DNA from: Myxococcales bacterium
GTDB taxonomy: Bacteria > Myxococcota_A > Polyangia > Haliangiales > Haliangiaceae
Direction: 5' to 3'
Assembly (NCBI GenBank): GCA_016794525.1
Contig: JAEUJY010000022.1
Location: 1 to 42,067 of the forward strand
DNA length: 42,067 bases
Below, in pieces: positions 19,294 through 27,684 of this stretch (its first letter is position 1; the number at the start of each line of letters is the position of its first letter). The notes beneath the pieces are model-generated. The model had not been told where the DNA came from, did not search any database, and worked only from the letters and a program-made list of their open reading frames with translations. A program made the translations under genes and the position numbers.

Positions 19294-22200
19294 ATGCGGG
19301 CCCCCGGCCTGGCACCGTGCTTGCTGTTTGCCATCCGCGTGGAGTCTCGCGTCGCGGATCATCTGTTGCCTCGGCTCGGGACCGCGCGGCGGCGCTTGCT
19401 GGCGGCCCCCGGCAGCGACTCGCCGCTCGAGTTCGCGACCCTCGCGATCCACGAGCTCGGCGCGTGCGGGCTCGGGCCGGTCCTGCTCGAGGTCGGCGAG
19501 CTCCGTCAGCCGGCCGACGCGGCGGCGATCGTCCCCGGGGATGACGTGGTCTCGCTCCCCCTGCCCAGCCACGGCGTCGCCGGCGCGCTGACGATCGCCG
19601 GCGTGCCGCCGAGCGACGAGGTCCAGGCGGCGCTGCGCGAGCTCCGCGACGTCATCGCGCTCGGCCTGCGGGCGCGCGTGCCCGTCGGGACGACGCCCGA
19701 CGGGTTCCGCGCGGTGTTCGAGGAGGCCGGCATCGGGATGGCGATGGTCGACCCGACCAGCGGGCGGTTCCTGACCGTCAACGACCAGCTGTGCGAGACC
19801 CTCGGGCGCACCCGCGCGCAGCTGCTCGCGCTCGGGTGGAGCGACGTGACCCCGGCCGAGGACATCGCCAGCATCCACGCGTTCCTGGCGCCCATCGTGG
19901 CCGGGACGGCGCGGACCCTGACGCGGGAGCTGCGCTACCACCACCCCGGCGGCGAGCAGCGGTGGGCGCGCCTCACGGTGACGCGCCTCGACGCGCCCCG
20001 TCCGCCGCGGCTGTTCGGGCTGCTCGAGGACGTCACCTCGGCGCGCGCGGCGATCGACGCGCTGCGGGCCAGCGAGGAGCGGCTGGCGACGATGTTCGCG
20101 CTCGCGCCGATCGGCATCGCCGAGGGCGACGTCATCGCGCGGCGGATGACCCGGGTCAACGCGCAGCTGTGCGCGATCACGGGCTACACCGCCGAGGAGC
20201 TGTGCTCGATCTCGGTGGTCGACCAGCTCACCCACCCCGACGATCGCGCCGAGCTGGAGGTGGCGATGCGGCGGCTCCTCAAGGGTGAGCTGCGCAGCCA
20301 CCGCGGCGAGCGCCGCTACGTGCACAAGGACGGCCACACGGTCTGGGTCAGCGTGACGCTGTGCCTGACCCGCGACCCCGCCGGCCAGCTCACCCGGACG
20401 CTGGCGATCATCGAGGACATCTCCGAGCGTCGCGCGCGCGAGGCGACGCTGCAGGTCTACACCAGCGCGCTGCTCGCCGCGGCCAACGCGATCATGATCA
20501 CCGACCCGCAGGGCACGATCATGGCCTGCAACCCGGCCATGACGACGCTCACCGGGTACGACGCCGAGGAGCTGATCGGCTGCCACCCGCGGCTGTTCCG
20601 ATCGGGGCGCCAGTCCGCCGAGTTCTACCGGGCGCTGTGGGACACCGTGCTGAGCGGCCAGGTGTGGCACGGCGAGCTGGTGAACCGGCGCAAGGACGGC
20701 GGGCTCTACACCGAGGACATGACCATCACGCCGGTGCGCGACGACGCCGGCGCGGTGACGCACCTGGTGGCGATCAAGCAAGACGCCACCGCGCGCGGCG
20801 AGACCGAGCAGGCGTTGCGCGCCAGCGAGGCGCGCTACCGCACGCTGGTCGACAACCTCGAGGACGTGGTCTTCACGCTCGACGCCGCCTTGCAGCTGAC
20901 GTTCGTCAGCCGCGCGGTCGAGAGTTTCGGCTACACCGCGGACGAGCTGCTCGGGCAGCCAGTGCTCGAGCGCCTGTTCCCGTTCGACCACCCGGCCGCG
21001 CTGGCGCTGATCGCCGACGGCGCCGAGCGGCCGCCGCGCGAGCTGCGCGCGGTCGACGCCAGCGGCCGCGCGCGCCCGGTGCGCGTCGTGCTGCGGCCGA
21101 TCCGCGCCGGCGGAGGCCTGGTCGGCGTGACCGGCGTGCTGGTCGACCTGACCGCCCGCCGCGAGATCGAGGAGCAGCTGCGCGCCGCGCAGAAGATGGA
21201 GGCCGTCGGGCGGCTGGCCGGCGGCGTCGCCCACGACTTCAACAACCTGCTCAGCGTGATCATGTCGTACACCGACCTGGCCATCGCCGACTTGCACCAG
21301 GAGGACCCGCTCAGCGCCGACCTCAAGGAGGTGCAGGCGGCGGCGCGGCGCGCCGAGGGCCTGACCCGGCAGCTGCTGGCCTTCAGCCGCAAGCAGGTGC
21401 TGTCGCCGGAGCCCTGCGACCTGTACGACCTGGTCACCGGCATCGCGCGGTTGCTGCAGCGCCTGATCGGCGAGGACGTCAAGCTGGTCATCGAGCGCGA
21501 CCACCCGAGCGCGCAGACGCTGGTCGACCGCGGCCAGATCGAGCAGGTCATCATGAACCTGGCGGTGAACGCGCGCGACGCGATGCCGGACGGCGGCCGC
21601 GTCACGATCGCCACCACCGCGGTCGACCTCGACGCGCCGACCGCCCACGCGCTGGAGCTGGCACCGGGCCCCTACCTCGAGCTGAGCGTGGCCGACACCG
21701 GCACCGGCATGGACGAGGCCGTGCGCGCCCGGGTGTTCGAGCCGTTCTTCACCACCAAGGGCGTCGGCAAGGGCACCGGGCTCGGCCTGTCGATGGTCTA
21801 CGGCATCGTCCGCCAGAGCGGCGGCGCGATCACCGTCGACAGCGAGCCGGGCCACGGCGCGCGGTTCCGGATCTACTTGCCCATCCACACCGGCGCCGAC
21901 GCCGACGAGCCGGCGCGGCCGGCGCCGCGGGTGCCGCGCGGCCAGGGCGCGGTGCTGGTCATCGAGGACGAGGTCGCGCTGCGCAACGTGATCCGCCGCG
22001 TGCTGACCAACGCGGGCTACGAGGTGGCGCTCGCGGCCGACGCCTTCGAGGCCCGGACCCAGGCGCGCCTGCTCGGCGATCGGCTGCGGCTGATCCTGTC
22101 GGACGTCATCCTGCCCGGCCCCAACGGGCCGACGCTGGTCGACGAGCTGCGCCAGGGCAACCCCGACATCGCGGTGATCTTCATGTCGGGCTACACCGAC

Positions 22201-26100: not shown

Positions 26101-27684
26101 GTCCGCGACGCCGCCGGCCAGATCTCGCGGTACGTCGCGATCAAGCAGGACGTCAGCGAGCGCTACCTGGCCGAGGCCGCGCTGCGCCGGAGCGAGGCCC
26201 GCTACCGCGCGCTGGTCGACGATCTCGAGGACCTCGTGCTCGCCACCGACCTCGACCACCGGCTGACCTTCGTCAACCGCGCGGTCGCCGCGTTCGGCTT
26301 CACCCCGGCCGCGCTGCTCGGCCGCACGGTCGACGACCTGGTCCCGCCCGATGACCTGCCGGCGTGGCGCGAGCTGCTGAGCGCCGACGTCGAGCCGCCG
26401 CCCCGCGAGCTGCGCATCTACGACGCCGCCGGCAAGCCGCGCACGGTGCGGGCCCGTGGCCGCCGCCGCCCGATCGACGACCCCGAGCCGGGCATGACGC
26501 TGGTGCTGATCGATCTCACCACGCGGCGCGAGACCGAAGAGCAGCTGCGCGCGGCCCAGAAGATGGAGGCGGTCGGGCGCCTGGCCGGCGGCGTCGCCCA
26601 CGACTTCAACAACCTGCTCAGCGTGATCCTCTCGTACACCGACCTCGCGGTGGCCGACCTGCACGCCGCCGACCCGCTGCGCGCCGACCTGCAGGAGGTG
26701 CTGGCAGCGGCCCACCGCGCCGAGGGGCTGACCCGGCAGCTGCTGGCGTTCAGCCGCAAGCAGGTGCTGAACCCCGAGCCGACCGCGCTGGCCGAGCTGG
26801 TCGCCGGCCTGGCCAAGATGCTGCGGCGGCTGATCGGCGAGGACGTCGAGCTGACGCTGCGCGACGTCGACACCGCGGCGCTGGTGACCGTCGATCGCGG
26901 CCAGCTCGAACAGGTGCTGATGAACCTGGTGGTCAACGCCCGCGACGCGATGCCCGGCGGCGGCCACGTGACGATCACCACCGCCGAGCTCGACCTCGAC
27001 ACCGCCGCCGCGCACGCGGTCGATCTGCCACCGGGGCGCTACCTCGAGCTGGCGGTGGCCGACACCGGCTGCGGCATCGACCAGGCCACCCAGCAACGGA
27101 TCTTCGAGCCGTTCTTCACCACCAAGGGCGTCGGCAAAGGCACCGGGCTGGGGCTGTCGATGGTCTACGGCATCGTCCGCCAGAGCGGCGGCGCGGTCAC
27201 CGTCGAGAGCGAGCCCGGCCACGGCGCGACGTTCCGGGTGTTCCTGCCGGCCCGCGACCCGCGCGCGCCGGCGCCGCCGCACCGCACCGCGCCGGTCCGC
27301 CTCGACCGCGGCGACGAGACCGTGCTGGTGGTCGAGGACGAGGCCGCGCTGCGCAGCGTCGTGCAGCGCGTGCTCGCGACCGCCGGCTACGAGGTGCTGG
27401 TCGCGGCCAACGCCACCGAGGCGCTGCTCCTGGCCGATCGCCACGGCGCGCGGGTGCGGCTGATCTTGACCGACGTGGTGATGCCGGCGATGAGCGGCCC
27501 CGAGCTGGTCGAGCGGCTGCGACCGCGCTGTCCGGCGGCGGCGGTGATCTTCATGTCGGGCTACACCGACGACGCGCTGGCGCGCTTCGGCGTCCTGGCC
27601 GCCGACTTCTTGCGCAAGCCGTTCGACCTGCGGGTGCTGACCGCGCGGGTGCGCGGCGCGCTCGACCAAGCGGCCGGCACCTGA
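23188..27684 (+). CDS. Large (~1500 aa) hybrid sensor histidine kinase with ~8-9 PAS/PAC domains, HisKA, HATPase_c and a C-terminal receiver; paralogue of 19294..22323
   Basis: The C-terminal ~600 aa are about 65% identical to the upstream HK ([43 protein letters not shown]..., [28 protein letters not shown], receiver LVVEDEAALRSV...LILTDVVMPAMSGPELV). The ORF-track 5' region (22531-23187) is antisense to tpiA and rejected. GTG 23188 is proposed; the true start may lie further downstream (for example the ATG of MVAALVIEH). Confidence 0.85.
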   Translation: MEPIVAALSRARRGWRDLARQDGLACARFLRQVGDDLRACGFASVTLEASDAAAGLIAQAHQANDLAIDADRAALPVDCPDLMVAALVIEHPGLAADPALVAGLRDAATVIDLALRALIEATARRAQAARYDQLFDHMRNGFAHCRAIFDGDRCIDWEYLRVNEAFARQTGLDAAPGRLVSQLIDGVRAHDPVLFARYGAVARGGDPVRFEYHVAALDEWFEVAAYHAGPDEFVAVFDVITERKRTEARLHASEHRFRAMFEQAAVGIALMGPNGEFRRANPRLCATLGYTEAELQRLTFVDITHDDHAASDRALHGPLTGGALGTVVLEKQLVRKDGGAVWHHVTIAGADADPDERTFVVIAEDVSAQRAAERGRAESENRLRLFVEHAPAAIAMFDRDMRYLAVSRRFITDCHLPDGDLVGRRHDEVFPNLPPHWQAMHARALAGAIERSAGEAFVRPDGEVEWVRWELYPWRDASGAIGGCVLFGETLTEQRRLALALATSEARHRAIFEQAGVGIALVEPATGRFVDGNAALCRIFRYSRAELQQRSWRDITPPEDVAQTPPELFDRAVPSVTIHKRYRCGDGTLIAGRVTVTRMTAPDGAALNLAFVEDVTEQRRAEEALRESQRRLAVVFEQSLAGMAIIRTRDRTVADVSESLVRMLGWSRDEWVGRDPDQLGVFLDPHDRLRLRALGGHTPTPIELQVRRKSGEVGDFLLSIGRIEIDGEPCSMCLLHDITELRRADAARIASERHLAALIELAPVGITEIDLTTGRPRWVNARLCELTGYTAAELGAMSIIDDLTDPADRAASRALAAGLGGGTPERSQLEKRYRTKDGRTVWTDVAVAVLRGAAGEVTGALSTIRDITEQRAARDALELQAQALNAAANAIVITDLRGVIERVNPALVALTGYPADELVGADMRIFSSGRQTPAFYRTLWQTITAGQVWRGELINRRQDGSHYHEEMTITPVRDAAGQISRYVAIKQDVSERYLAEAALRRSEARYRALVDDLEDLVLATDLDHRLTFVNRAVAAFGFTPAALLGRTVDDLVPPDDLPAWRELLSADVEPPPRELRIYDAAGKPRTVRARGRRRPIDDPEPGMTLVLIDLTTRRETEEQLRAAQKMEAVGRLAGGVAHDFNNLLSVILSYTDLAVADLHAADPLRADLQEVLAAAHRAEGLTRQLLAFSRKQVLNPEPTALAELVAGLAKMLRRLIGEDVELTLRDVDTAALVTVDRGQLEQVLMNLVVNARDAMPGGGHVTITTAELDLDTAAAHAVDLPPGRYLELAVADTGCGIDQATQQRIFEPFFTTKGVGKGTGLGLSMVYGIVRQSGGAVTVESEPGHGATFRVFLPARDPRAPAPPHRTAPVRLDRGDETVLVVEDEAALRSVVQRVLATAGYEVLVAANATEALLLADRHGARVRLILTDVVMPAMSGPELVERLRPRCPAAAVIFMSGYTDDALARFGVLAADFLRKPFDLRVLTARVRGALDQAAGT

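Follow-up and report, generated by a model that had tools for sequence, protein, structure and literature searches.

The kinase locus and its gene models

Two genes for soluble hybrid histidine kinases, named HK1 and HK2 here, flank the glycolytic gene tpiA in a 42,067-bp contig from a metagenome-assembled genome (MAG) that NCBI labels "Myxococcales bacterium". The complete contig was analysed and is referred to as the window. Beyond HK2 lie a gene for a protein with a Ser/Thr kinase domain (STK), pgk and gap. An earlier reading made from the sequence alone (the sequence-only reading) had described HK1 and HK2 as genes in tandem orientation around tpiA; both are intact, and their coordinates were confirmed from the open reading frames (ORFs), the translations and Pfam. 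Taken as a whole, the results make it likely that the two kinases are old paralogues which have lost PAS modules differentially, and that they are accessory genes on the borders of a glycolysis cluster that is itself conserved.

The GC content of the window was found to be 70–80% throughout, with a uniform composition across the kinase region. The GC content at third codon positions (GC3) was 0.94–0.99 in real genes and was used as the criterion to separate them from spurious ORFs. In HK1, it was ~79% in the segment 19294–19365 as against 97% for the gene. The NCBI protein for HK1 (P0001, 985 aa) begins 24 codons downstream of the 1009-aa call, and the orthologue in the related contig L001 begins at the same codon. 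Because the fall in GC3, this orthologue and the NCBI entry agree, TTG 19366 rather than ATG 19294 is probably the true start of HK1. For HK2, the database protein (P0006, 1469 aa) starts at TTG 23275 and is 29 residues shorter than the product of GTG 23188, the start given in the sequence-only reading. The position of this GTG is kept in the related loci L003 and L004, and the residues RGW...ARFLRQV upstream of the database start are conserved in orthologues and make the first helix of a modelled GAF-like domain. Since the added residues are conserved and form a confidently modelled helix, GTG 23188 is the better start, and the database entry probably truncates the protein by 29 residues. Both NCBI proteins are named "PAS domain S-box protein". 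The features of the region are collected in Table 1.

Table 1. Genes, domains and spacer of the kinase region, with positions in the window.
Feature	Position	Strand	Basis and remarks
HK1, soluble hybrid histidine kinase	19294-22323	+	ORF/translation, Pfam; 1009 aa from ATG 19294
HK1, alternative start	TTG 19366	+	985 aa; NCBI annotation and L001 orthologue begin here
HK1 N-terminal compact GAF-like domain	19366-19683	+	hhalign against HK2 N-terminus
HK1 PAS-A	19684-20067	+	module BLAST; HK2 counterpart A', 38% identical
HK1 PAS-B	20068-20445	+	module BLAST; HK2 counterpart B', 46% identical
HK1 PAS-C, MmoS/NifL-like (flavin-type)	20446-20814	+	phmmer, NCBIfam nifL_nitrog
HK1 PAS-D, adjoining the kinase core	20815-21168	+	module BLAST
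HK1 DHp and CA core	21169-21903	+	His647 in AHDFNN (nt 21232-21234); N, G1 and G2 boxes
HK1 receiver (REC)	21904-22320	+	Pfam Response_reg; EDE acidic pocket, Asp937 in LILSD, FMSGY, LRKPF
tpiA, 252 aa	22330-23088	-	Pfam TIM 2.3e-94; convergent with HK1
tpiA/HK2 spacer, 99 nt, divergent transcription	23089-23187	.	alignments; corresponds to ancestral STK-tpiA spacer
HK2, soluble hybrid histidine kinase	23188-27684	+	1498 aa, GTG start
HK2 N-terminal compact GAF-like domain	23188-23568	+	AlphaFold2 model, Foldseek
HK2 PAS alpha	23569-23937	+	module BLAST; PAS_8 match; no counterpart in window HK1
HK2 PAS beta	23938-24321	+	module BLAST; no counterpart in window HK1
HK2 PAS gamma	24322-24681	+	module BLAST; no counterpart in window HK1
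HK2 PAS A'	24682-25071	+	module BLAST; counterpart of HK1 A
HK2 PAS delta	25072-25431	+	module BLAST, Pfam; no counterpart in HK1 clade
HK2 PAS B'	25432-25821	+	collinear with HK1 B
HK2 PAS C', MmoS/NifL-like	25822-26181	+	collinear with HK1 C; NCBIfam nifL_nitrog match
HK2 PAS D'	26182-26535	+	collinear with HK1 D
HK2 DHp (His1138), CA and REC (Asp1429)	26536-27681	+	motif search
STK, 950 aa (weak GAF, degenerate GGDEF, Ser/Thr kinase)	27691-30543	-	Pfam; convergent with HK2
pgk	30633-31832	-	tblastn synteny; Pfam PGK on orthologous loci; upstream of STK gene
gap	31920-33014	-	tblastn synteny; Pfam Gp_dh on orthologous loci; upstream of STK gene

Domain organization of HK1 and HK2

PAS repeats, HisKA, HATPase_c and Response_reg were detected by Pfam in both kinases. 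Module-by-module BLAST together with Pfam gave the order GAF-like domain, PAS A-B-C-D, DHp, CA and REC for HK1, and GAF-like domain, PAS alpha-beta-gamma-A'-delta-B'-C'-D', DHp, CA and REC for HK2, amounting to four and eight PAS modules, respectively. The H-box AHDFNN was located at residue 646 in HK1 and 1137 in HK2, the N box reads NLAVNARDA in HK1 and NLVVNARDA in HK2, the G1 box DTGTG in HK1 and DTGCG in HK2, and the G2 box GKGTGLGL is found in both. Pfam HisKA (cutoff 26.9) scored 30.4 bits with HK1 and 26.8 bits, marginally under the cutoff, with HK2, whereas HATPase_c matched the two kinases at 1.9e-22 and 2.7e-24. The receiver motifs EDE, LIL(S/T)D, FMSGY and LRKPF are present in both, with Asp937 (HK1) and Asp1429 (HK2) as the predicted phospho-accepting residues, and Response_reg was above its cutoff in both; the earlier claim that each kinase ends in its own receiver domain was thus borne out. 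Judged by their DHp, CA and REC sequences, HK1 and HK2 are hybrid histidine kinases. No transmembrane segment was found in either, the maximum Kyte-Doolittle value over 19 residues being 1.52.

A domain of 105–125 aa precedes the PAS string in both kinases and had no Pfam match in either, the Pfam GAF models included. The two N-termini were aligned by hhalign (E 5.8e-5, 30% identity, 91 columns). The AlphaFold2 model of the HK2 domain was of high confidence (pLDDT 92.7, pTM 0.86), and the top Foldseek matches in the PDB were all GAF domains (5HL6, 3RFB and 8DGD; TM 0.59–0.66), with E values of only ~0.04. The HK1 domain would have the same GAF fold by extension from the HK2 model. As both kinases begin with this homologous domain, the extra modules of HK2 are internal and do not make an N-terminal extension. 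The sequence-only reading had taken them as N-terminal additions, but they sit between the shared N-terminal domain and the shared PAS modules.

The similarity of the two kinases was measured at the protein and nucleotide levels. BLASTP gave 55% identity over 872 aa, and the global identity was 68% for the last 400 aa, 62.8% for the last 600 and 59% for the last 750. The value of ~65% proposed earlier for the last ~600 residues is therefore close to the measured 62.8%, and it is far above the background, as an unrelated PAS hybrid kinase from a related genome was ~29% identical and the 120 best matches among 5.8 billion proteins had a median identity of 39%. By domain, the identity was 81% in DHp, 74% in CA and 61% in REC; the differences in DHp helix 1 were confined to Met/Leu and Ile/Val, and the H-box and G-box stretches were near-identical in the BLASTP alignment, as had been described. 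The shared region had been given as PAS-PAS-HisKA-HATPase-REC. Its kinase and receiver part was correct, but the PAS count was not, since three clear modules (B, C and D) and a weaker fourth (A) are shared. Blastn gave 74.2% identity over 2313 nt; the nucleotide similarity whose absence had been named as evidence against a duplication is thus present.

Among the solved PAS structures, PAS-C was closest by phmmer to 3EWK (E 2.5e-34, whole chain) and 2GJ3 (E 8.6e-19), above all LOV and other PAS domains. PAS-C of both kinases aligned without gaps to MmoS PAS-A (3EWK, domain E 5.7e-21) and to NifL PAS1 (2GJ3, at the E value given above), and the motif W-x-G-E-L-x-N-R-R-K/Q-D-G is kept. The NCBIfam model nifL_nitrog matched HK1 at residues 388–524 and also matched HK2. 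The flavin pocket of MmoS is formed by residues including T103, G107, H132, N164 and R195 (PMC9668731), of which T103, G107 and N164 are conserved in PAS-C and R195 is replaced by K. H132 is replaced by Pro in HK1 and by Met in HK2, and flavin binding by PAS-C of the two kinases is plausible but uncertain. The surrounding architecture and output of MmoS and NifL are unlike those of HK1 and HK2. A LOV photosensor was considered and rejected, as the adduct-forming Cys of GXNCRFLQ is absent; the corresponding stretches are GCHPRLF in HK1 and GADMRIF in HK2, with Pro and Met at the Cys position, respectively.

Divergence of the paralogues and probable loss of PAS modules

The relationship of the kinases was examined by neighbour-joining with BLOSUM distances over 655 well-aligned columns (PAS-B to REC), with 200 bootstraps and few taxa. 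The HK1 proteins of the window genome, L001 and L003 formed one clade and the HK2 proteins of the window genome, L003 and L008 formed another, each with a bootstrap of 100%. Two further proteins were placed with them: P0005, from an unrelated locus in another genome, joined HK1 (92%), and P0007 joined HK2 (57%). The whole subfamily of the two clades, P0005 and P0007 had a bootstrap of 94%, in agreement with the earlier view of HK1 and HK2 as true paralogues with a shared output module. The per-module identity matrices (A, B, C, D and gamma) gave the same orthologue grouping as the tree. The identity between HK1 and HK2 within one genome was 58% in the window and 53% in L003, and the values between genomes were 59% and 53%. 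Gene conversion or concerted evolution of the pair was rejected, as the within-genome identity did not exceed the between-genome identity in any module. Furthermore, the NG86 synonymous divergence (dS) of the paralogues was 0.39–0.44 (~0.41), which equals the saturation plateau for 97% GC3. Because the orthologues form separate clades, P0005 is nearer to HK1, the within-genome identity is not raised and dS is saturated, the duplication must be regarded as old. On these sequence comparisons, HK1 and HK2 belong to one narrow subfamily of soluble kinases found in Kofleriaceae (Myxococcota) and are paralogues of ancient divergence. The sequence-only reading had called the duplication local; with the two clades fully supported, P0005 closer to HK1 and dS saturated, a local origin cannot be shown.

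Had HK2 arisen by a recent tandem duplication in place, copying HK1 or the 3' two-thirds of it with the junction, and subsequently gained N-terminal PAS modules, this would explain why the two genes lie on the same strand ~0.9 kb apart, why they align collinearly (63% identity over 600 aa, 74% at the nucleotide level over 2.3 kb), and why their stop-to-stop junctions look alike. We consider such an event highly improbable. It is contradicted by the fully supported orthologue clades and by P0005 being nearer to HK1 than HK2 is, and neither within-genome paralogues as closest relatives nor unsaturated synonymous sites, which would mark a recent tandem duplication, were found for the pair. The nucleotide identity over aligned codons was 70.6% between HK1 and HK2 of the window, 70.9% between HK1 of the window and HK2 of L003, and 70.9% between HK1 of the window and P0005, i.e. 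not higher within the genome than across genomes. The level of nucleotide identity between HK1 and HK2 follows from protein similarity together with 97% GC3, and it carries no information on recent duplication; at such GC3, nucleotide identity is unusable as evidence for a recent event. The PAS modules beta and gamma occur in the HK1 clade and in outgroups, which indicates loss and not gain, and the extra modules of HK2 are internal while the N-terminal GAF-like domain is common to both kinases.

The junctions were compared separately. The TGA of HK1 lies 6 nt from the complement of the tpiA stop and that of HK2 lies 6 nt from the complement of the STK stop. The strings CCTGACGCCGCTCA and CCTGACCGCGCTCA reported for them and the 6-nt gap were exact, but their resemblance did not go beyond chance: the spacers match at 4/6 positions, with P = 0.08 at the local base composition, and the stop codons TGA/TCA add no evidence because they are fixed by definition. 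The HK1 junction spacers of three lineages were CGCCGC, CGGCGCG and CGCGGC. At the HK2 junction, the same 6 nt (CCGCGC) are present in the window and L008, and L003 has 48 nt. The junction motif as a remnant of duplication was therefore rejected on its P value and its lack of conservation among orthologues. Convergent packing is tight elsewhere in the window, where the pairs 2273/2290 and 16209/16226 are each 16 nt apart, and P0007, located at an unrelated locus, ends 7 nt from an unrelated convergent gene. No intrinsic terminators or sigma-70 promoters were found at the junctions or in the spacer, and the counts did not exceed those of shuffled controls; Rfam and tRNA scans of the window returned nothing.

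The PAS content of the subfamily was determined by module BLAST, with N for the N-terminal domain and K for DHp-CA-REC. HK1 of the window and of L001 is N-A-B-C-D-K, HK1 of L003 (1099 aa) is N-beta-gamma-A-B-D-K, P0005 is gamma-A-B-C-D-K and P0007 is N-beta-gamma-A-delta-B-C-D-K; HK2 of the window is N-alpha-beta-gamma-A-delta-B-C-D-K, and the HK2 proteins of L003 and L008 are like it except for lacking gamma. The gamma module of L003 HK1 is closest to that of P0005 (71%), in agreement with the gene tree. Since both branches of the HK1/HK2 split contain beta and gamma, parsimony favours a long ancestor with differential in-frame loss. The common ancestor would have carried at least beta-gamma-A-B-C-D, and different PAS modules would have been lost in frame in each lineage: beta and gamma in HK1 of the window, C in HK1 of L003, and gamma in HK2 of L003 and L008. 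Alpha and possibly delta could be the only HK2-specific additions. The difference in size between HK1 and HK2 would thus come mostly from differential PAS loss. The PAS-module expansion of HK2 assumed earlier is not supported, as beta and gamma are also found in L003 HK1 and P0007 and gamma in P0005, with similarities that follow the gene tree, and the direction of the inferred change is corrected from expansion to loss.

The rate of change of the kinases was compared with that of their neighbours. Between the window and L003, the neighbours are 94–96% identical, HK1 59–67% and HK2 68–73%. The non-synonymous divergence (dN) was 0.25 for HK1 and 0.17 for HK2 as against 0.02–0.03 for tpiA, pgk and STK, with dS within a factor of two. 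The omega value per module ranged from 0.06 (DHp) to ~0.7 (PAS-A, PAS-B' and delta), DHp being the most constrained (0.06–0.23); these values are biased upwards because NG86 dS is near saturation. No module had an omega above 1, and positive selection was rejected. As all catalytic motifs are present and omega is below 1 in every module, both kinases are functional sensors under weak constraint, a common condition of input domains. The locus illustrates, on a small and clear scale, how sensor kinases evolve through the in-frame loss of entire PAS modules and through the presence or absence of genes, next to housekeeping neighbours that are 94–98% identical.

The glycolytic backbone and the possible role of the kinases

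The closest genomes found were Kofleriaceae or "Myxococcales" MAGs. The closest relatives, L001 and L009 (HK1 86% identical), have HK1, tpiA, STK, pgk and gap and no HK2. The somewhat more distant loci L003–L006 (tpiA 96%, STK 94%) keep the window order of HK1, tpiA, HK2 (1368 aa), STK, pgk and gap, and L008 has an HK2 orthologue with the junction described above. In L012, a more distant member of Kofleriaceae (STK 80%), the order is gap-pgk-STK-tpiA, and no HK1 or HK2 homologue was detectable within the 22.8-kb locus. STK and tpiA are adjacent in the more distant L010 (STK 65%) with no HK2 between them, the contig stopping ~0.5 kb past tpiA. The contig of L011 (STK 62%) has gap, pgk and STK and stops 105 nt after the STK match, leaving the tpiA side out of view. 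From this gene order, the conserved and older backbone in Kofleriaceae is gap-pgk-STK-tpiA, with tpiA as its last gene, and HK1 and HK2 are lineage-restricted, dispensable additions at the tpiA edges of it. The position of the kinases around a glycolytic gene, which had seemed unusual from the window, is explained in this way. The contiguity of tpiA with pgk, proposed as a check, was not found, as STK separates the two in all Kofleriaceae loci spanning the interval. The window is like a gap-pgk-tpiA glycolytic operon in having these genes clustered on one strand, and it differs from one in the 950-aa GGDEF-STK protein encoded between pgk and tpiA and in HK2, which adds 4.5 kb on the opposite strand. 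In L003 (3375–6276) and in L004–L006, three genes encoding a XylR_N-V4R sigma-54 activator, a YceI protein and a SnoaL protein are inserted between a 414-aa gene and HK1, which further supports the view that gene gain and loss are concentrated on the HK1 side of the locus.

The spacer upstream of tpiA is ~94–105 nt long with or without HK2, and its tpiA-proximal ~55 nt are conserved. Because its length is about the same in both cases, HK2 exactly fills a slot that runs from the tpiA spacer to the STK stop. That L001 and L009 lack HK2 would reflect either a precise loss or the acquisition, by recombination in the highly conserved flanking sequences, of an allele without HK2. The exact fit is also expected if one of the kinases, most likely HK2, came in as a block of ORF size beside the STK stop, recombined from another part of the genome or from a related strain, its adjacency to the other kinase being coincidental. 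The variable presence of HK2 among close relatives, the occurrence of subfamily members at unrelated loci and the weak grouping of HK2 with P0007 (57%) and not with HK1 are in line with such a secondary juxtaposition. Against it, ORF lists and window scans gave no mobile-element genes, repeats or tRNA beside HK2, the base composition is uniform across the region, and the present data do not separate this course of events from an ancient duplication at this locus. We therefore treat it as a possible but rather unlikely origin of the arrangement. As a separate observation, the tpiA/HK2 spacer contains a conserved GACTCTACCCC box and a twice-repeated GGCGTCAC, which are partly conserved in L001, L009 and L003; these elements may be a promoter or operator common to tpiA and HK2.

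Returning to the interpretation of HK1 and HK2 as old paralogues and accessory sensors, several points weigh against it. The grouping of HK2 with P0007 had a bootstrap of only 57% in a neighbour-joining tree of few taxa, so that the tree settles the branching order within the subfamily only in part. The duplication may also have taken place here at a very early time, with P0005 and P0007 relocated elsewhere afterwards. A simple deletion of HK2 would need to have been very precise, given the nearly unchanged spacer length. The position of MmoS H132, equivalent to NifL E70, is Pro in HK1 and Met in HK2, and its replacement in both kinases makes flavin binding uncertain. No Hpt protein or partner response regulator was found among the window genes examined, and for this reason the output through a phosphorelay is a prediction from the family.

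The working of the kinases can be outlined from their domain families. Each kinase would be a cytoplasmic sensor that dimerizes through DHp, and the GAF-like and PAS inputs would set the autophosphorylation of the DHp His (His647 in HK1 and His1138 in HK2). One of the inputs may be the redox state, through the MmoS/NifL-like and possibly flavin-binding PAS-C. The phosphoryl group would pass to the Asp of the kinase's own receiver and onward to an Hpt protein and a response regulator. The phosphorelay style suggested by the sequence-only reading agrees with the catalytic motifs and receiver present in both hybrid kinases, the relay itself being the behaviour expected of the family. As the two kinases barely differ in DHp helix 1, HK1 and HK2 may serve the same downstream partners with different inputs, and their heterodimerization may be speculated.

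Among known systems, the kinase core had its best structural-database match in Caulobacter CckA (5IDJ, E 3.8e-57; 5IDM is also CckA), and CckA was the top NCBIfam match (419 bits with HK1, 427 bits with HK2; cutoff 1000), with only the core and REC matched. HK1 and HK2 resemble CckA in the DHp-CA core, the H-box, the C-terminal REC and the PAS modules upstream of the core. They differ from it in scoring below the equivalog cutoff, which means that they are not CckA equivalogs, in having no membrane anchor, in carrying four or eight PAS modules and a GAF-like domain where CckA has two PAS, and in a myxobacterial host without a CtrA-type cell-cycle context. Control by cyclic di-GMP (c-di-GMP) as in CckA was considered, but the residue aligned in 5IDJ with CckA W523, which contacts c-di-GMP, is Ala in both kinases and the neighbouring GGDEF of STK is degenerate (AGDDL). 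EspA and EspC of Myxococcus xanthus, from the same phylum, have a similar soluble sensor-HisKA-HATPase-REC organization (NCBIfam E 1e-72 to 8e-70), but HK1 and HK2 scored 204–264 bits against cutoffs of 1400 (EspA) and 1200 (EspC) and their sensor modules differ; a developmental role for HK1 and HK2 cannot be inferred from this similarity. EspA and EspC act together with Ser/Thr kinases. On sequence matches, HK1 and HK2 are CckA-like multi-PAS hybrid kinases of a kind abundant in Myxococcota, to which no named equivalog applies. Myxobacterial genomes carry very many paralogous PAS-containing hybrid kinases; the pair fits this known pattern and matters little beyond annotation.

Of greater interest than the pair is the GGDEF-Ser/Thr kinase gene nearby, which lies within the gap-pgk-tpiA cluster and is highly conserved. 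The STK protein was 97% identical to the L001 orthologue and 94% to that of L003, and tpiA was 96–97% identical to these two, whereas the flanking kinases were only 59–86% identical. The position of STK between pgk and tpiA is kept in the Kofleriaceae loci spanning the interval, and STK homologues were found in L009–L012. With its degenerate GGDEF signature and an RxxD I-site (RPRD) kept 5 residues upstream, STK may act as a receptor of c-di-GMP rather than as a cyclase. Its N-terminal region is weakly GAF-like. The C-terminal ~240 residues had no match in Pfam, and neither this end of the protein nor the N-terminal region gave a significant match when PDB sequences were searched.

The setting of STK recalls Myxococcus, where pkn4 is in an operon with pfk and Pkn4 phosphorylates phosphofructokinase (PMC2887360). 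In both cases, a gene for a eukaryote-like Ser/Thr kinase lies among genes of glycolysis; the window differs in that any kinase-substrate relation is putative. It could be proposed from this precedent that HK1, HK2 and the GGDEF-STK protein form a functional module that tunes gap, pgk and tpiA to the redox or energy state, through enzyme phosphorylation or through convergent or divergent transcriptional interference at tpiA. The order HK1-tpiA-HK2-STK-pgk-gap recurs in at least two lineages (the window and L003), several lineages retain the stop-to-stop spacing of 6–7 nt, the 99-nt divergent spacer is common to tpiA and HK2, and PAS-C resembles the redox sensors MmoS and NifL. Such a module is nevertheless improbable, as L012 keeps the backbone with neither kinase detectable there, the closest relatives L001 and L009 are without HK2, the non-synonymous rate of the kinases is ~10-fold that of the cluster, P0005 and P0007 sit in unrelated contexts, and tight convergent spacing is general in this genome, as in the 16-nt pairs. 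A wider scheme, in which STK is a dedicated regulator of lower glycolysis and the flavin-PAS kinases are recruited as lineage-specific redox or energy inputs to a mixed His-Asp/Ser-Thr/c-di-GMP hub for triose-phosphate flux, is very unlikely.

Other genes of the window were recorded in passing. A 743-aa protein (42–2273, +) has 99% GC3 and no Pfam match. The product of 2290–4377 (-) contains an HD_5 (HD-GYP-like) domain and could have a role in c-di-GMP turnover. The segment 33491–40562 (-) holds two very large ORFs (~990 and 1367 aa), whose L001 counterparts have faint Cu-binding_MopE matches. The 912-aa protein of 8739–11477 (-), also present in L001, matched Pfam MVP_shoulder (4.5e-20) and Vault_3 (2.3e-11) and is a bacterial protein homologous to the major vault protein of eukaryotes.

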